Positions 51,274 to 61,181 of a DNA stretch of 61,181 bases are shown here, in pieces (within the stretch, counting starts at the first letter, position 1; every line of letters begins with the position of its first letter). The notes under the pieces were generated by a model. The model searched no databases and had not been told where the DNA came from. It saw only the letters and a list, made by a program, of their open reading frames with translations. The position numbers and the translations under genes are program-made. Origin of the DNA: Methanomicrobiales archaeon (GTDB taxonomy: Archaea > Halobacteriota > Methanomicrobia > Methanomicrobiales > JACTUA01); contig JASEFH010000017.1 in the NCBI GenBank assembly GCA_030019205.1, positions 1-61,181 on the forward strand, read 5' to 3'.

Positions 51274-51492
51274 CGGTCTCTCCGGTGACGATGGGCGGAT
51301 ACGCTCTCCTCCCTGATATATGCTTGCGGTCTGCGGGGGCAGGGGGCGTCCGCGCCCCGCGGTGCATGCGGAGATTCGGGGGATCCCCCGGGATTCGGTG
51401 CGGACCCCGAGCCTCCCCAGGGGTTCTTCCGCAAAGCCCTTCAGGCAGCAGTTAGTATTATGATCCCGGAGCGCCAAAGGTACTGGTCAGGT

Positions 51493-51563
51493 GCGATAGT
51501 AGTCTAGTGGCAGGACAGGGGCTTCCCAAGCCTCTAGCCCGGGTTCGAATCCCGGCTATCGCA
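51493..51563 (+). tRNA. tRNA-Gly (anticodon CCC)
   Basis: Hand-folded cloverleaf. Acceptor GCGATAG/CTATCGC; D stem GTCT/GGAC; anticodon stem GGGGC/GCCTC with loop TTCCCAA; T arm CCGGG-TTCGAAT-CCCGG; discriminator A. No CCA is encoded. Confidence 0.85.
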
Positions 51564-51899
51564 TCCCTCTTCTCGGTCACCGTTTATGCACACCCGTTCC
51601 GGGTCACCCCTGACCCGCGACTGCCGGGAGATATTTTCTCCACGAGGTCCGGCCGGTGACTGCCGAGCCCGATAGGCTTTGCGCCCGGGAGAACGCGGCC
51701 AAAATCCCGACGGACGCTGCGCATTTCCGCGAATGCATCGCCGAACGTCGGGCGGACCGGCACGATCGTCTCCTGCCCGGTCACCGGGCGGGGCTTCACC
51801 GCTCTCTTCCCGGAGATGCTGGAAGCGGATCTCTGCGGGGTATCGCACGCGCATAGAGTCCTGAGGTCGGCCGTTCACGCAGAACCCCCCGGCGGGGGG

Positions 51900-52737: not shown

Positions 52738-53142
52738 TTACCCTTGAGACGACTCCTCCATGGAGGTTCTTTTTACTTTGGTGGATAGAGCCTTCTCTTC
52801 ACCCTCGTGTGGCGCATATGTTTCTATCTGACCACCACGATGCACGGCCTCGAGGGTTCTGAGGGTGACCTCTGCCAGTTTTTTAGCTGCTGCATGGGAC
52901 ATGAATATTCGTGTTGCATTGACCAGGACTTTGCCATCTCTCTTGACACCCGGCATTTCAAGAAAATCAATAAACACGTCGCGTGTTGAACAGGTTATAT
53001 AGGCAGTGTTGGAGTAGCGGGTGATGGTAACGTCCGGTACCATGTCTGCCGGGTCGAAGGCATACATCGCCTTTAGATCGATCTCCATAGGTTCGTTATC
53101 CAATGTTCCGGGTTCCTGTTTGTTTGCTTTACTTTTCGCCAT
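52738..53142 (-). CDS. DUF3467-domain protein
   Basis: YSNTAYITCSTRDVFIDFLEMPG…ATRIFMSHAAAKKLAEVL matches the DUF3467 core. The alternative start at 53172 would overlap the upstream gene. Confidence 0.6.
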   Translation of the reverse strand: MAKSKANKQEPGTLDNEPMEIDLKAMYAFDPADMVPDVTITRYSNTAYITCSTRDVFIDFLEMPGVKRDGKVLVNATRIFMSHAAAKKLAEVTLRTLEAVHRGGQIETYAPHEGEEKALSTKVKRTSMEESSQG

Positions 53143-53143
53143 A

Positions 53144-53650
53144 TCATGTACCTGCCGAGCGTGCGATTCCATACTCTCCTTTGATCAAATAGCTCGGTTC
53201 AGAGGTCGAGAGCTGGGAGTTCACGAGTTTGTATTCTCCCACGGTTGCAACAGCGTGGGATGCGACCTCGCTCCCGAGAACCGTCTTGCAATAGTGTTTG
53301 ATTGCCGTATCCATGCACTCCGATCCTTCTCGATCATCCAGGATGGCAAAGGACAGGAACGTGAGTGCCACGAAGCGTTTGCACTCTGTGTTGACGCTGT
53401 ACACGGGATGCTTGTCACCATGCTTGATGAGCAGCCCCAAGTCCGTGAGTGTTTTCAGTGCGTCCCGGATTGTGGGCGCTGTACATCCTGTCAGTTCCAC
53501 TAGATCCTTGGGGCGGTAGAGCGAATGCGGGTCCGCAACAATCTCCTGGACAACCTGAGCGAGTGCCGCATCCCCAAATATGCCCCCAAACGGTGAATCG
53601 ATAAATGTATCATCGACTTCACGTCGGGGATTCACGCCATTCTCTATCAT
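53144..53650 (-). CDS. winged helix-turn-helix transcriptional regulator
   Basis: DLVELTGCTAPTIRDALKTLTDLGLLIKHGDK is a wHTH. It is co-oriented with, and abuts, the DUF3467 gene. Confidence 0.5.
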   Translation of the reverse strand: MIENGVNPRREVDDTFIDSPFGGIFGDAALAQVVQEIVADPHSLYRPKDLVELTGCTAPTIRDALKTLTDLGLLIKHGDKHPVYSVNTECKRFVALTFLSFAILDDREGSECMDTAIKHYCKTVLGSEVASHAVATVGEYKLVNSQLSTSEPSYLIKGEYGIARSAGT

Positions 53651-54105
53651 AGATCGTGATGGTAGATGGTGCAGAATAGATAATAATTTTTCCGTTATGG
53701 AAAAAACATTATTCAAATTTCTGCCAGTGCCGGTGGTGGGGGATCTCCTCTCCGTAGTACTGCATCCACTGGTCCGCCCATACCAGATCGTGGAGTTTCA
53801 CCACCTTATCCCCCGTTGAGCCGTGTCAGTAGATGCCGATGCGGTCCTGCCCGAGGTCATTGATGGTCGTCTCCACTTCAAGGCCCAGATCCTGCCACTT
53901 CCTCTCGCACTTCGTGAGACGCTGCTGTCCTCCTCTCTTTTTCAACCAGGCCAGGAAACGAACTCCGATTGAACCCGGATCCGGATGCGGCGGGTGAGGT
54001 GGGGCGGCCGGCATGTATCCTCAGTCCGTTGTCAATTTTCTGAATGCATAAAGGATAGGCAAGCGCTGTAAATATACTGACAAATAAGTCCCTTTTTACT
54101 AAAAA

Positions 54106-54693: not shown

Positions 54694-55494
54694 ATGCAGG
54701 GCATCGAAAAGACGGTTCACATCATCCCCCTCGGATACGAGATCGATCGGGCCGTAAAACCGTTCGAGAAGACGAAGGCCGACCGTGTATACCTATTGAC
54801 GACGTTGCATCCATCGAACCCGGACGATGTCCGGAGTAAGGATCAGCGGCACTACACGGAGACTGTGAAAAGGATTCTGGAAGATATGGAGATTCAGGTA
54901 CAGTGCGTCCATGTGGATCTCTTCGATCTGCTCGACGTGATGAAAGAGATCTCGAAGATCATCCTTCGGGAGAAGGCCAACAACAATCGAATTTTTGTGA
55001 ACATGTCTGCTAGCGGAAGGCTCACTTCTGTCGCTTCCACCCTTGTTGGAATGGCCCACGATGTCACGGTGTATTATGTCCCTGCCGAGGATTACCCTGT
55101 CGACGAGGTCCTCCGCAGAGATCACGGCTTGAGAATCTGCTCTCCAGATGATGATATCCAGAAGCTGGTGAACTTCCAGTTCGTCATGCCGGATCCCATC
55201 GGCAGACAGATCCTCCTGCACCTGTGCAGCGAGAGAAGGCGGTTGAAGATGAGAGATATTCTGAGTGTCCTGAAGAAAGAGAAGGTTGAGGGGTTCGAGG
55301 AGCTGTTCGATGAGATCCGGGATGGCAACAAAAGAGCGGAGCAGAGTCGCCAGCTCATGAAGCTGGACAGGACCATCCTGGCGAAGCTCGAAAAGAACGG
55401 GTGGATCGCGCGGGAAAAGGTCGGACGGACCGTCTTCATATCCATAACGGAATCCGGGAAATACGCCGCATGTATCAGCGGTTATTTGGACTAG
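54694..55494 (+). CDS. HFX_2341-like archaeal transcriptional regulator (Rossmann-like N-domain plus C-terminal wHTH)
   Basis: VHIIPLGYEIDRAVKPFEK…RVYLLT is a Rossmann-like sensor domain. The C-terminus reads ILSVLKKEKVEGFEELFDEI…TILAKLEKNGWIAREKVGRTVFISITESG (wHTH). Confidence 0.5.
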   Translation: MQGIEKTVHIIPLGYEIDRAVKPFEKTKADRVYLLTTLHPSNPDDVRSKDQRHYTETVKRILEDMEIQVQCVHVDLFDLLDVMKEISKIILREKANNNRIFVNMSASGRLTSVASTLVGMAHDVTVYYVPAEDYPVDEVLRRDHGLRICSPDDDIQKLVNFQFVMPDPIGRQILLHLCSERRRLKMRDILSVLKKEKVEGFEELFDEIRDGNKRAEQSRQLMKLDRTILAKLEKNGWIAREKVGRTVFISITESGKYAACISGYLD

Positions 55495-56399: not shown

Positions 56400-58016
56400 A
56401 TGGCACGGGGGAGCAGGACCGCAAGGAACCAGAGCAAAAGATCCGGAAACGGGGCCAATCTCGGGTTTGAGGCAACGCTCTGGGCCGCTGCTGACAAGAT
56501 GCGCAACAACATGGATGCGGCCGAGTACAAGCACGTGGTCCTCGGCCTCATCTTCCTGAAGTACATCTCCGATGCGTTCGACGAGCGCCACACCCGGCTC
56601 GAGACGGAGCTGGGCGATCCGAAGAGCCTCTGGTACATCCGCGAGCCCCAGGCCCGCTACCGCGCCCTCGAGGATCCGGACGAGTACCGGGCGGAGAACG
56701 TCTTCTGGGTCCCGAAGGAGGCCCGCTGGTCCTACCTGCAGGCGAATGCGAAGCAGCCCACCATTGGAAAGATCCTTGACGAGGCGATGGTCGCGATCGA
56801 GCGGGACAATGTATCGCTCAAGGGTGTGCTCCCGAAGGACTACGCCCGCCCCGCCTTGGACAAACAGCGCCTCGGCGAGCTGATCGATCTCATCGGGACC
56901 ATCGGTCTCGGAGACAAGGAGAACCGTTCAAAGGACATCCTCGGGAGAGTGTACGAGTACTTCCTCTCCCAGTTCGCGAGTGCCGAGGGGAAGAAGGGCG
57001 GCCAGTTCTACACGCCCCGCTGCGTGGTGCGGGTGCTGGTGGAGATGCTCGCGCCGTACAGGGGGCGGGTCTTCGACCCCTGCTGCGGCTCGGGGGGCAT
57101 GTTCGTCCAGAGCGAGAAGTTCGTCGAGGCCCACGGCGGACGGATCGGGGATATCAGCATCTACGGGCAGGAGTCCAACCCGACGACCTGGCGGCTGGCA
57201 AAGATGAACCTGGCCATCCGGGGCATCGACGCCGATCTCGGGAAGGAGCACGCGGACAGCTTCCACCGCGATCTCCACCCGGACCTAAAGGCCGACTACA
57301 TCCTCGCCAACCCGCCGTTCAACATGAGCGACTGGGGTGGTGAGCGGCTCCGGGAAGATGCCCGCTGGAAGTACGGAGTCCCGCCGGTGGGCAACGCCAA
57401 CTTCGCCTGGGTGCAGCACTTTATCCACCACCTGGCCCCGACCGGTCTTGCCGGGTTCGTGCTCGCGAACGGTTCGATGTCCTCGAACCAGTCCGGCGAG
57501 GGGGAGATCCGCCAGAACATCATCGAGGCGGACCTGGTGGACTGCATGGTGGCGATGCCAGGGCAGCTCTTCTACTCGACGCAGATCCCCGTCTGTCTCT
57601 GGTTCCTGGCCCGCGACAAGAAGAACCACCGCTTCCGCGATCGACGGGGGAAGATCCTCTTCATCGATGCCCGCAAGCTGGGCCATATGATCGACCGGGT
57701 GCATCGGGACCTCTCCGAGGAGGATATCGCCCGCATCGCCGGGACCTACCATGCCTGGCGGGGCGATGCCGGGGCGGCGACGTACGAAGACGTGCCGGGT
57801 TTCTGCAAGAGCGCGACCATCGAGGAGGTGCGGCAGAACGGGTATGTGCTCACGCCGGGGAGGTATGTGGGTGCGGAAGTAGTGGAGGACGATGGCGAGC
57901 CGTTCGATGAGAAGATGCAGCGGCTCACTGCGAAATTGAAGGAGCAGTTCGCAGAGTCCGAGCGGCTGGAAGCGGTGATCCGGGAGAACCTGAAGGGGCT
58001 CGGGTTTGAGATTTAA
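56400..58016 (+). CDS. hsdM: type I restriction-modification system DNA methyltransferase subunit
   Basis: HsdM N-terminus ([34 protein letters not shown]), AdoMet motif ([12 protein letters not shown]) and catalytic NPPF ([12 protein letters not shown]). Confidence 0.9.
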
Positions 58017-58035
58017 GAATAAGGGAGCACATTCT

Positions 58036-59757
58036 ATGAGTATTCCCACAAATAGTGAAATAATCGCCCTTTTAAACCAGCTTGAAAATACATCTGCCGA
58101 TAATCTTGAAACCCAGAACCTCGATTTCAAACCCTGGACCGATGCGAAAAATGACTTGAGAATCGCGGTTGAATACGCTGTTTGTTTTGCCAATACGACC
58201 GGTGGAGTTGTCGTCTTTGGTGTGTCCGATAGGATAACAGGACGCTCTCGTGCGATTCACGGTGCACAGGGCTATGATATCGATGTATGGCGCAGAGGGA
58301 TCTTTGATAGTACTCGGCCACATATTCTTGCAGATGTGGAGGAACTTGCCGTTCCCGAGGGCACCGGACATCTTTTAGTGGTACGCGTGCCAAAAGGGGA
58401 TTCCCCACCCTATGGCACGGCTCTGGGAATTTTCAAGCGGAGGGTTGGTAAGAACTGTATGCCGATGGACCCTGCGGAATTCGTATCCTACCGTGTCTCA
58501 ACGGGTGCTGTTGACTGGAGCGGTCAGCCAGCTCACAATGTCTCAATAGATGATCTCGATCCCCTTGAGGTTGCAAGAGCACGTTCCTTCCTGCGAAGTC
58601 GCAATCCCGAGTCCGAGCTTCTTAAAATGCCTGATTATGCATTTCTGCAGGGTCTTGAAGCGATTCGCGACGATGCCGTTACAAATACGGGTTTAATCCT
58701 TTTTGGCAACCCGGACATTATAGAAACCCATTGTCCACAGAACCAGGTGCATTACGTCCACCAGGTCTCCGAAACCAATGTCGCGAGAAATGATCTGTGG
58801 AGGATGAGTCTCCTCCAGATCATTGAGAAACTGGAGGGGATATTTTCGAGTCCAGCCAATCCGGAGGAAGAGATTCCCATGGGCCTTTTCAGGCTTCGGA
58901 TCCCGGCGTATCCCCTCGAGGTAGTGAGAGAAGCAGTACTGAATGCGGTGACGCACCGGGATTATACCAACCCGGGTGAAGTGCTCATCCGGCATTCACC
59001 ATATGAACTTGCAGTAACGAGTCCGGGTGGATTCATCGGCGGAATTAACCTCCAGAATATTCTTCGTCATGAGGCTGTGGCTCGGAACCGGACACTGGCG
59101 AACGCTTTTCTCAAACTCAGACTGGTCGAATCTGCTGGCACTGGACGCCGGAAGATCTTCATTCCCATGCTCGAATACGGGAAGAGAATGCCCCAATATG
59201 AAGCAGATGAGTCCTGTGTTACGCTCCGGATATTCGATGGAACGTTTGATCAAGCAATGGCACGGCTCGTAGCCAGCTGGCATGCGAAAGGGAAGGATAT
59301 CGGGATGGATGGTCTCATGGTCCTCACCTACCTGAAGCGTCATCGTTTTATCACATCTTCCGATGCGGCGGCGTTGCTCCAGCTGGATCGTGAGGAGGCC
59401 ATCAGTGTGCTGGATCGCATGAGCCATCCCAAGAGGGGCCTTCTTGAGCGGAAAGGTCACGTTCGCATGGCGACGTATTACCTCACCAAGTCCGTGGCCA
59501 AGGATTTGATCGGGAAGGTTGCGTATTCCTCTACAAAAGGGATCGATCCCACCCGATACATGGAACTGGTCCGGGAATTTGTGCAAGATCACGGGAGCAT
59601 AACGAATAGAGAGTGCCGCCAGTTATTCGGGCTTGGCGATTCCCCTTCAGCTCAGGTGGAAGTATCCCGATATTTGAGAAAGTGGTCTGGTCCGGACGGG
59701 TTCCTCATCCCCGAGGGCAGGTCCTCCCAAAGAAAATACCGATTACGGAGTTCTTAA
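58036..59757 (+). CDS. AlbA_2 (Schlafen-like 'divergent AAA') plus HATPase_c_4 domain protein (often annotated RecG-like/transcriptional regulator)
   Basis: The N-terminus (…NLDFKPWTDAKNDLRIAVEYAVCFANTTGGVVVFGVSD…) is the Schlafen/AlbA_2 core. A central ATPase-like domain and a C-terminal wHTH-like region follow. It starts 20 bp after the hsdM stop. Confidence 0.7.
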   Translation: MSIPTNSEIIALLNQLENTSADNLETQNLDFKPWTDAKNDLRIAVEYAVCFANTTGGVVVFGVSDRITGRSRAIHGAQGYDIDVWRRGIFDSTRPHILADVEELAVPEGTGHLLVVRVPKGDSPPYGTALGIFKRRVGKNCMPMDPAEFVSYRVSTGAVDWSGQPAHNVSIDDLDPLEVARARSFLRSRNPESELLKMPDYAFLQGLEAIRDDAVTNTGLILFGNPDIIETHCPQNQVHYVHQVSETNVARNDLWRMSLLQIIEKLEGIFSSPANPEEEIPMGLFRLRIPAYPLEVVREAVLNAVTHRDYTNPGEVLIRHSPYELAVTSPGGFIGGINLQNILRHEAVARNRTLANAFLKLRLVESAGTGRRKIFIPMLEYGKRMPQYEADESCVTLRIFDGTFDQAMARLVASWHAKGKDIGMDGLMVLTYLKRHRFITSSDAAALLQLDREEAISVLDRMSHPKRGLLERKGHVRMATYYLTKSVAKDLIGKVAYSSTKGIDPTRYMELVREFVQDHGSITNRECRQLFGLGDSPSAQVEVSRYLRKWSGPDGFLIPEGRSSQRKYRLRSS

Positions 59758-59770
59758 CAGGGGTCTTAAC

Positions 59771-60022
59771 ATGATGGTTGTTCGAATGATTAAATCATTT
59801 TTAATCGGCTTTAATTTGCATAAATGCGCGAAATTGAGCTTATTTGATATCTTAACAGATCTTTTCATCACGGTACATCGCAGTCACCAATACTATGGAG
59901 AATACGTAAGCTATTATGGCTTCTTCAAGCGAGCTATTGACCCTTCCTGTATCTGCTCACACGGATACGTACAAAATTGTCGCGACGCTGTCATGACTAT
60001 TGGCAAGGTGATGATTCGATGA
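59771..60022 (+). CDS. small hypothetical protein (83 aa) in a low-GC cassette
   Basis: ORF in an approximately 40% GC segment. Its TGA overlaps the next ATG (ATGA), which suggests coupling. Confidence 0.35.
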   Translation: MMVVRMIKSFLIGFNLHKCAKLSLFDILTDLFITVHRSHQYYGEYVSYYGFFKRAIDPSCICSHGYVQNCRDAVMTIGKVMIR

Positions 60023-60678
60023 ACTATCCATCAAAAAAAGAACTATTCGCTCAAGGGATGAAGTCTTCGCAAGCGTCTAATTTCCTGATCTTTGCCAGCT
60101 ACAGCACAAAGGATATTGAAAAGGATTTAGAATATAGTGCTGGAGATTATGCTCACGCAGGTTTCAAGGCTGGACTATCACTTGCCCCTGTACTAGGAGG
60201 ATCATTGGCAGAATTTTTCTCCATGGTTATTGCTCCGCCAATAGAGAAAAGACGCGAAGCCTGGTTGGTGGAAATTCACTCGCGATTAAAATTACTGGAA
60301 AATAAGGTTGAAGGCTTCAAAATTGAAAATCTCGCCCAAAATGAACAATTTATCAGTATACTCCTCTATGCAACTCAAGCAGCAATGAGAACACACCAAC
60401 AGGAAAAACTCGACGCTTTTCGCAACATGGTTGTTAATTCAGCATTAAGGCCAACAATTGATGAAAATTTACAATTGGTTTTCCTGAATCTTGTTGATAG
60501 ATATACTCCTTGGCATTTGGTTATCCTCAAATTTGCAGATAATCCTAGACAATATGGGGAAAGTCTAGGAATCAATTATCCAAATTGGGGCATGGGTAGC
60601 TTAGGAGGTCATCCCAAAACCCTCCAGATCATTAGGGCACAGGCCAGGTATATGAGCCCCAGGAATGAGTGTTCATAG
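60019..60678 (+). CDS. hypothetical protein (low-GC), with its 3' end running into IS sequence (probably truncated)
   Basis: ORF from MNYPSKKELF. The last roughly 25 codons are encoded by the antisense of the IS transposase C-terminus, so the native C-terminus is probably lost. Confidence 0.4.
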   Translation: MNYPSKKELFAQGMKSSQASNFLIFASYSTKDIEKDLEYSAGDYAHAGFKAGLSLAPVLGGSLAEFFSMVIAPPIEKRREAWLVEIHSRLKLLENKVEGFKIENLAQNEQFISILLYATQAAMRTHQQEKLDAFRNMVVNSALRPTIDENLQLVFLNLVDRYTPWHLVILKFADNPRQYGESLGINYPNWGMGSLGGHPKTLQIIRAQARYMSPRNECS

Positions 60679-61181
60679 CGTTCGTATCTGGGGACTAGCT
60701 TCTTAAAGGCCTCGATCCAACTGAAGAACCGTTCAACCGCACCCCGTTTCTTGTAGAGATTCTTATCAAACCGAACCGGTCTTCCCCGCTTGGGATATTT
60801 CCGGTTTCTGGGATTGATCGGGATATTGCTTTTTATGCCTCGTTTCCGAGTGTACTGTCGGATCTCCTGGGAATCATAGGCGGCATCGGCGGAGATGACG
60901 GCCGGTTTCTCCGTGGTTCCGGGAATCGTGAATGCTGCAACCGTTGGTTCAAACAGGCGAGAATCATGGATGTTCGCCGGGGCGACCCTGCAGGCCAGCG
61001 GGAGACCCTGCTCATCGACCAGAACGCTCAGTTTGTTTCCTTTCACCTTTTTGTAACCGTCAAAGCCGATGTTTCCCCTTTTTTGGCGGGAATCGATTTG
61101 GTATCGGTGATGCAATGGACCAGGTCGAGTCGCTGGATGTCATAGCCGGACTGCAGCAGGTCGAGGAAGATCGCCTGATAC
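60590..61181 (-). mobile_element. IS5-family insertion sequence (partial; continues beyond the window) with frameshifted DDE transposase
   Basis: Transposase C-terminal part (…GNIGFDGYKKVKGNKLSVLVDEQGLPLACRVAPANIHDSRL…ISADAAYDS…) in ORF 60609..61115. The upstream part (…YQAIFLDLLQSGYDIQRLDLVHCITDTKSIPAKKG) is in the 0 frame, joined at an A6G run (61084-61096). Confidence 0.75.

Follow-up and report, generated by a model that had tools for sequence, protein, structure and literature searches.

A Schlafen-type gene behind hsdM in a probable insertion-sequence-interrupted type I restriction-modification operon of a Methanomicrobiales archaeon

We analysed a stretch of 61,181 nt from a Methanomicrobiales archaeon (contig JASEFH010000017.1, assembly GCA_030019205.1), referred to below as the window, and studied the loci at positions 56400-61181. 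There, a gene for a type I methyltransferase subunit (hsdM) is followed by a gene encoding a Schlafen nuclease domain joined to a GHKL-type ATPase domain. Comparison with related loci indicated that this region is probably the promoter-proximal part of a type I restriction-modification (RM) operon that was interrupted by an insertion sequence (IS) and that carries the Schlafen-type gene as an embedded passenger defence gene; we put the probability of this reading at roughly 80%. It is carried by the identities of the genes, their collinearity with complete operons, the point at which the locus is cut, and the wide embedding of related genes in type I operons. The locus would best be annotated as a type I RM operon, interrupted by an IS and holding an embedded Schlafen-type defence gene, rather than as an orphan methyltransferase or a new system. 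The proteins of the window were examined with an open reading frame (ORF) listing and with Pfam, NCBIfam and PADLOC profile searches. The features are as follows.

56400..58016, plus strand: hsdM, type I methyltransferase subunit, 538 aa, intact (Pfam, PADLOC, identity to the HsdM of complete operons)
58036..59757, plus strand: Schlafen-nuclease/GHKL-ATPase/helix-turn-helix (HTH) gene ("Schlatpase-HTH", pSlfn-HisKinase-HTH), 573 aa, intact (PF04326 and PF13749)
58108..58131, plus strand: codons of the Schlafen catalytic motif E25-x4-D30-x-K32 (ETQNLDFK), read from the translation
58930..58944, plus strand: codons of the GHKL N-box E299...N303 (REAVLNAVTHRDY), placed by invariant residues
59248..59745, plus strand: helical C-terminal part, probably made up of winged-helix domains, aa ~405-570 (AlphaFold2 model, Foldseek)
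59758..60018, no strand: AT-rich spacer from the passenger gene to the next operon gene, without homology to the related loci L004, L087 and L088
60019..60597, plus strand: 5' part (about 193 codons) of a conserved helical protein of ~235-240 aa, cut by the IS (homologue alignment; GC 0.394)
60598..61181, minus strand: one end of an IS5-family insertion sequence that runs off the window (Pfam, NCBIfam; terminus inferred)

An IS5-family element cuts the locus behind hsdM and the Schlafen-type gene

The hsdM product matched Pfam HsdM_N (E = 7e-28) and N6_Mtase (E = 6.6e-112) as well as the PADLOC model MTase_I (E = 1e-237). Its translation contains the AdoMet motif I, DPCCGSGG, and the catalytic motif IV, NPPF, as type I methyltransferases do. 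Over its full length it was 81% identical to the 534-aa HsdM of the complete operons L004, L087 and L088; an exact-sequence look-up of the window HsdM returned no match. The GC content of the gene is 0.637. The initial annotation had called a complete HsdM with intact NPPF and AdoMet motifs, and profiles and translation agree with it. It had also placed an AlbA_2 gene 20 bp downstream; the close adjacency stood, with both genes on one strand and a gap of 19 nt. Homologues of the product of this second gene (GC 0.515) are 573 aa long and begin with MSIPT, which makes the ATG at 58036 the correct start.

Behind the spacer, a low-GC ORF spans 59977/60019..60678 on the plus strand (GC 0.39). It corresponds to a protein of ~235-240 aa with 88 homologues, mostly from Methanomicrobiales, to which the window copy aligned only up to residue ~193-197 (window position ~60597-60609). 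Against one of them, P0124, it was 72% identical over residues 31 to ~195 and then diverged. The point of divergence coincides with the stop codon of an IS transposase, and beyond it the frame enters IS sequence; at the DNA level, homology of this gene to L087 stopped at 60597. The ~240-aa gene is therefore truncated by the IS. The transposase gene orfB (60609..61115, minus strand) encodes an IS5-family DDE transposase that matched NCBIfam IS5_3 (NF033580) with 126.9 bits against a cutoff of 110, over model positions 108-258 of 258, and Pfam DDE_Tnp_1 with an E value of 7e-22. The transposase is split over two frames, orfB at 60609-61115 and orfA continuing past 61181, an arrangement consistent with programmed frameshifting. 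The exact terminus of the IS was inferred to lie at 60598-60608, and the window ends at 61181, 0.58 kb inside the element.

Two other assemblies stop at nearly the same place. A Methanomicrobiales metagenome-assembled genome (MAG; GCA_030017635.1, locus L001) encodes an identical Schlafen-like protein, shares 99.5% DNA identity over 5.5 kb, and has its contig end at window position 60659. A metagenome contig (L090), 100% identical over the query ORF, stops at window position 60647. Three independent assemblies thus break within about 0.6 kb of the same junction. Because all three break in the IS, it is evidently present in several copies; a multi-copy element that disrupts short-read assemblies would give exactly such ends. 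No contig was found that reads through the IS, L001 and L090 both ending within it. When the HsdR of the closest complete operon was used as a query, it led to a different MAG (GCA_040961015.1; GC of flanking housekeeping genes, 0.61) with no DNA match to the window.

Neither hsdS nor hsdR was detected anywhere in the 61-kb window when it was searched with profiles made from 58 HsdS and 38 HsdR sequences. Their lack had already been remarked on in the initial annotation. It holds for the window; absence from the genome is not implied, because the window ends inside the IS, and the "orphan" appearance of hsdM stems from that end: what is not in view is not the same as what is absent. Likewise, the low-GC "cassette" and the IS that had been said to follow are both there, the former being a conserved operon gene that normally lies just before hsdS and not foreign filler. 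The proposal of a type I locus disturbed by insertions was essentially correct, except that the IS interrupts the ~240-aa gene and no replacement of hsdS or hsdR is visible.

Related operons continue into hsdS and hsdR

The closest homologue with sequence context was L004, in which the gene order is hsdM-AlbA2-hsdS-YopA-x-Fic-hsdR. Window positions 56435-59690 are collinear without a break with its hsdM and AlbA2 genes, with 74% identity at the DNA level, 81% between the HsdM proteins and 75% between the Schlafen-like proteins. An hsdM gene followed directly by a Schlafen-like gene was found elsewhere only in L004-L006, all of which continue into hsdS and hsdR. In L087, the order is hsdM, the ~240-aa gene, hsdS, a 302-aa ORF, GmrSD, further genes and hsdR; in L088/L089, it is hsdM, DUF1016/YhcG, an 84-aa ORF, the ~240-aa gene, hsdS, further genes, Fic and hsdR. 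When the window was compared with L087, homology stopped at 57979 and resumed at 60111, corresponding to an insertion of about 2.1 kb between hsdM and the ~240-aa gene. The Schlafen-like gene is therefore a passenger. L088 has another cassette in the same slot after hsdM, flanked by a duplicated HsdM C terminus.

That duplication is the 84-aa ORF (L088 7750-8004; L089 5096-5350). About 50 aa of it repeat the HsdM C terminus, and 138 bp are 79% identical to the 3' end of the window hsdM. It looks like a scar of cassette insertion via recombination at the hsdM 3' end. Neither a duplicated hsdM 3' end nor inverted repeats were found flanking the passenger gene in the window. The GC content steps from 0.64 in hsdM to 0.52 in the passenger and 0.39 in the ~240-aa gene, against 0.67 in the host, a mosaic that fits a cassette structure.

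The position of hsdS was examined further through the ~240-aa gene. A metagenome scan with this ORF gave 34 loci, which were pooled with L087-L089. Wherever enough downstream DNA and an hsd context were available, hsdS followed immediately (15/15 loci: L087, L088/L089 and 12 metagenome loci). Where loci with at least 63% identity gave no HsdS match, the remaining DNA was always shorter than 550 bp. A few distant homologues (at most 54% identity) with long flanks had no hsd genes that the profiles used could detect. This synteny strongly suggests that hsdS and hsdR of the window genome are, or at one time were, located beyond the IS. The passengers between hsdS and hsdR vary and include YopA, Fic, GmrSD, S_4TM, DSPc, DUF6978 and DUF1828/1829 (L004 13347-16868; L087 11076-12845; L126 195-4552). 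Judged by these arrangements, the operon lineage is a carrier of swappable cassettes.

In this operon lineage, which is common in Methanomicrobiales, the layout is hsdM, a variable passenger slot, the conserved helical protein of ~240 aa, hsdS, passengers such as Fic, YopA, GmrSD and others, and hsdR. In the window genome, the slot after hsdM is filled by the Schlafen-nuclease/GHKL-ATPase/HTH gene, which is probably co-transcribed and co-transferred with the restriction system. An IS5-family element has inserted into the conserved gene preceding hsdS, and the window, and probably the contig, ends inside this element. The distal part of the operon is thus hidden from view, which is not to say that it is lost.

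The locus could instead be a decayed remnant, with hsdS and hsdR truly lost upon IS insertion, hsdM a non-functional orphan and the Schlafen-ATPase gene a stand-alone defence gene. Nothing is visible past the IS, IS elements are generally known to cause adjacent deletions often, and stand-alone copies of the Schlafen-like gene are common, including in the close archaeal relatives L002, L010, L011 and L012. Yet neither hsdM nor the Schlafen-like gene has lost length or any of its motifs, and the ~240-aa gene is cut cleanly at one point, as by a simple insertion. In two other samples, near-identical DNA carries this junction as well, which fits a simple insertion, perhaps a recent one. We consider such decay unlikely.

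The Schlafen-like protein combines a nuclease motif, a GHKL ATPase and a C-terminal helical region

Both domains named in the initial annotation of the 573-aa protein scored above the Pfam gathering cutoffs: SLFN_AlbA_2 (PF04326) at aa 25-144 (E = 8e-16; 59.1 bits against 25.3) and HATPase_c_4 (PF13749) at aa 319-397 (E = 1.3e-12; 48 bits against 26). No HTH match was obtained in the Pfam search. The nuclease motif Ex4(E/D)xK, defined for prokaryotic and human Schlafens (PMC13056530), is present as E25-TQNL-D30-F-K32, which bears out the analogy with the Schlafen core that had been drawn earlier. The protein has 868 homologues, and the best 120 of them, with 59-100% identity, are spread across archaea and many bacterial phyla. 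E25, F31 and K32 of the nuclease motif and E299 and N303 of the GHKL motif were invariant in the homologue alignment (A1); among the best 120 of the 868, both motifs were kept in 111 and the nuclease motif alone in 6 more. ETQNLDFK aligned with ESASIEFK of PDB 5YD0 (deposited as Schlafen 8), in a family-profile match that covers just the catalytic stretch. E299/N303 match, by motif position only, E314/N318 of RzAgo, which bind the ATP gamma-phosphate and Mg (10.64898/2026.05.29.728809).

The AlphaFold2 model had a mean predicted local distance difference test score (pLDDT) of 70, with values of 75-90 in the C-terminal region. The C-terminal third gave weak Foldseek matches to MarR-type winged-HTH regulators (E ~0.03, probability 0.98-1.0). 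The family profile matched a full-length solved homologue, DIP2311 of Corynebacterium diphtheriae (PDB 3LMM, from structural genomics; ~25% identity), with an E value of 8e-33 over residues 36-463, and Foldseek aligned the model to 3LMM with an E value of 5e-20 over ~545 columns. Neither PADLOC-DB v2 nor NCBIfam has a dedicated model for this protein. PADLOC matches to the Argonaute-associated pAgo/Aga profiles were weak and confined to the common SLFN/GHKL module.

These features agree with a published group of proteins. Kuzmenko et al. named the PF04326-PF13749 pair the "Schlatpase" supradomain and found it in 58.6% of 103,533 prokaryotic Schlafen proteins; Schlatpases are mostly small proteins with a C-terminal HTH, and more than 90% of the C-terminal tails are HTH (10.64898/2026.05.29.728809). 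Perez Taboada et al. (Nat Microbiol 2026) distinguished 55 prokaryotic architectures, the commonest being fusions of the Schlafen domain to "HisKinase" (34%) and "HisKinase-HTH" (19%), and 70% of such genes were located within 10 kb of a defence gene (PMC13056530). The window protein shares with the Schlatpase/pSlfn-HisKinase-HTH group the two domains in the same order, the Ex4(E/D)xK motif, the GHKL E...N residues and a defence-island location; its weakly MarR-like C-terminal region may correspond to the short HTH tail of the group. No difference in architecture is evident; the window copy is archaeal and lies after hsdM rather than hsdS. By sequence, the protein is a member of this group.

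What such a protein might do can be approached through its better-known relatives. In RzAgo, a SLFN-pAgo, ATP binding by the PF13749 GHKL domain drives a tetramerisation that assembles the active tRNase (10.64898/2026.05.29.728809). RzAgo has the nuclease motif and the same SLFN-GHKL supradomain, but its Argonaute sensor is absent from the window protein; mammalian SLFN11/13 share the nuclease motif and differ by a helicase domain and an N-lobe that the window protein does not have. Two other Schlafen architectures protect E. coli via phage-triggered tRNA cleavage (PMC13056530). By analogy, the embedded protein would be an ATP-switched oligomeric RNase, most likely a tRNase, forming a separate abortive-infection layer beside restriction, and sensing or regulation would most likely fall to the putative HTH region at its C terminus.

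A quite improbable alternative is that the protein is a transcription regulator of the restriction operon or of other genes, and not a nuclease, in line with COG2865 ("predicted transcriptional regulator with HTH"), the database name "putative DNA binding domain-containing protein", and the resemblance of its C-terminal region to MarR-type winged helices. The conservation of nuclease and ATPase residues given above (111/120) argues against it, as does the demonstration that related SLFN domains are tRNases (PMC13056530; 10.64898/2026.05.29.728809). So does the movement of the gene among unrelated defence contexts (BREX, MmeI-type, Eco57I-type, NACHT, TIR and a recC-recB gap).

Homologues are widely embedded in type I operons

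We surveyed the neighbourhoods of homologues using one genome per species. The 80 loci, from Methanomicrobiales and many bacterial phyla, encode proteins 54-75% identical; a copy was scored as embedded when type I genes lay on the same strand within 8 kb. By this definition, 32/80 species-level loci were inside type I operons (13/36 when only loci whose two flanks each reached 5 kb were counted). The prevailing order was hsdM-hsdS-AlbA2-hsdR, found in 18 loci and, in truncated versions, in others. Culturable carriers of this order include Paracidovorax cattleyae DSM 17101 (L080), Pseudorhodoferax sp. Leaf265 (L046) and Ideonella aquatica 4Y11 (L058). At 15/26 junctions (L019, L044, L046, L052, L054, L056-L059, L062, L064, L065, L076, L080 and L085), the hsdS stop codon and the beginning of the Schlafen-ATPase gene shared 1 or 4 nt, which implies translational coupling, as predicted from the gene junctions, in the type I operon. 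The hsdR gene typically followed ~60-165 nt after the Schlafen-ATPase gene. In a neighbour-joining tree, embedded and stand-alone copies were interleaved, with at least 6 embedded clades, and one large betaproteobacterial clade was almost uniformly embedded.

Contexts other than type I operons included BREX with HicAB (L002), an MmeI-type enzyme (L071), a 1623-aa Eco57I-type methylase (L084), a NACHT-LRR protein (L018) and a TIR protein (L034); a few copies were beside ordinary genes. The possibility that the AlbA_2 gene is a conserved housekeeping regulator was rejected, the contexts being variable and mostly defence related. In L124 (Aeromonas veronii plasmid AP021941, 39524-55143), a more distant homologue (25% identity), annotated as "ATP-dependent DNA helicase", immediately precedes an annotated hsdM. 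Next come a hypothetical gene at the place of hsdS, then Fic, and a DEAD/DEAH-box helicase at the place of hsdR. The type I link therefore reaches remote family members and plasmids. Taken together, the gene contexts indicate that the Schlafen-like gene is a cassette that moves among defence islands, markedly prefers type I operons and is not an hsdM-specific partner. In Pseudomonas sp. sp1636 (L078 6565-15405), a homologue lies between recC and recB, the recBCD operon being the carrier.

The initial annotation had offered, as its second option, a two-gene module of hsdM and the Schlafen-like ATPase gene. Such a module, acting independently of HsdS and HsdR, for instance as a methylation-sensing toxin pair, is hardly credible. 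In its favour, the two genes lie 19 nt apart on one strand and the pair is kept in L004-L006. Against it, every other pair-bearing locus found runs on into hsdS and hsdR, most embedded copies come after hsdS and not hsdM, 48/80 homologues have no nearby hsdM (in each of the 80 loci the gene is either in a full type I operon or without hsdM in the vicinity), HsdM of this lineage is also found where the gene is lacking (L087) or replaced by another cassette (L088), and type I enzymology has established that HsdM has no DNA-recognition domain of its own and requires HsdS for DNA binding.

Several points weigh against an IS-interrupted operon with an embedded defence gene. The hsdS and hsdR genes of the window genome were never observed, and an IS-mediated deletion or rearrangement could have taken place. 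Even with the distal genes present, the IS may abolish their expression, which would leave hsdM functionally orphan. The nuclease domain was poorly modelled by AlphaFold2 (pLDDT 40-60). About 60% of the homologues, the 48/80 mentioned above, have no neighbouring type I genes, hence the protein does not need the restriction system in order to function. On the defence side, neither of the two constructs that protected E. coli was one of the HisKinase fusions under test (PMC13056530), and the form consisting of SLFN-GHKL-HTH alone has no published defence phenotype or trigger.

Comparison with PrrC and other embedded defence genes

Embedding in type I operons is not new, so that the arrangement can hardly be called under-described, as it had been at first. 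Payne et al. documented that defence genes are often embedded in type I, BREX and DISARM operons; their classic example, PrrC, is reported almost exclusively as embedded (10.1101/2024.01.29.577857). Stand-alone or HsdS-fused Schlatpases in type I operons of Poribacteria, and an exchange of SLFN-GHKL with type I RM loci, have also been noted (10.64898/2026.05.29.728809). The operons described here resemble those of the "guilt by embedding" work in having passenger cassettes between hsdM and hsdR (Fic, YopA, GmrSD and DUF1016/YhcG in related loci). One difference is that the Schlafen-like gene has no PADLOC-DB v2 model of its own.

The closest parallel in operon position is EcoprrI, a type Ic system with the order prrA-prrB-prrC-prrD, equivalent to hsdM-hsdS-prrC-hsdR. 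Both PrrC and the window protein combine a predicted tRNA nuclease with an NTPase regulatory domain in a type I operon, and relatives of the latter occupy the same hsdS-hsdR slot in at least 18 loci, often coupled to hsdS; the window copy itself follows hsdM directly. The folds are unrelated, PrrC having an ABC-type ATPase and its own nuclease domain, and PrrC differs again in that ~60% of the Schlafen-like homologues are without a type I system. Searches of the 573-aa protein in Pfam, NCBIfam and PADLOC gave no PrrC, RloC or ABC-ATPase match, only PF04326 and PF13749. Because the domains differ, the protein is, as far as its sequence tells, not a PrrC family member, and any likeness is functional only. 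PrrC is physically masked by its restriction complex and switched on by an anti-restriction peptide; for the window protein, such control would be hypothetical.

It is conceivable, though doubtful, that the type-I-embedded Schlafen-GHKL-HTH proteins are PrrC analogues, that is, latent tRNases that are restrained by, or sense, HsdMSR and that fire when a phage anti-restriction protein disables restriction. If true, this would explain the hsdS-hsdR slot, the 1-4-nt overlaps, and the absence of HisKinase-type Schlafens among the protective E. coli constructs. The linkage data are compatible with such a role; they speak of linkage, not of interaction. The architecture in question, the commonest among prokaryotic Schlafens, lacks a known trigger, and ~40% of the surveyed subfamily are in type I operons, usually in the PrrC position. 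The survey therefore offers a lead, namely that these Schlafens are worth studying together with their restriction partners and anti-restriction proteins, and it raises the question whether Schlafens in such operons act, like PrrC, as guards of restriction.

Genomic setting of the locus

The GC content falls sharply to ~0.50 from ~52630 to the end of the window, against ~0.67 in the host. The drop starts ~1.1 kb downstream of tRNA-Gly(CCC) (51492-51566), which suggests a genomic island adjoining this tRNA gene; no integrase or attachment (att) repeat was visible within the window. A gene at 54694-55494 (plus strand), 0.9 kb upstream of hsdM, encodes a CARF/Csa3-like Rossmann domain with a winged helix (HFX_2341_N and DUF6293_C; PADLOC CARF3, 1.4e-102). 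There was no CRISPR-Cas or cyclase gene among the ORFs examined in the window. The CARF/Csa3-like protein may be a cyclic-oligonucleotide-responsive regulator of the same island. The other largest ORFs of the window encode a phosphorylase-like protein and PAS histidine kinases. At 52738-53716 on the minus strand, a gene for a DUF3467 protein (52738-53172) overlaps slightly with the 190-aa ORF that follows it, for which PADLOC gave no more than faint HTH-like matches; this pair lies at the beginning of the low-GC stretch.

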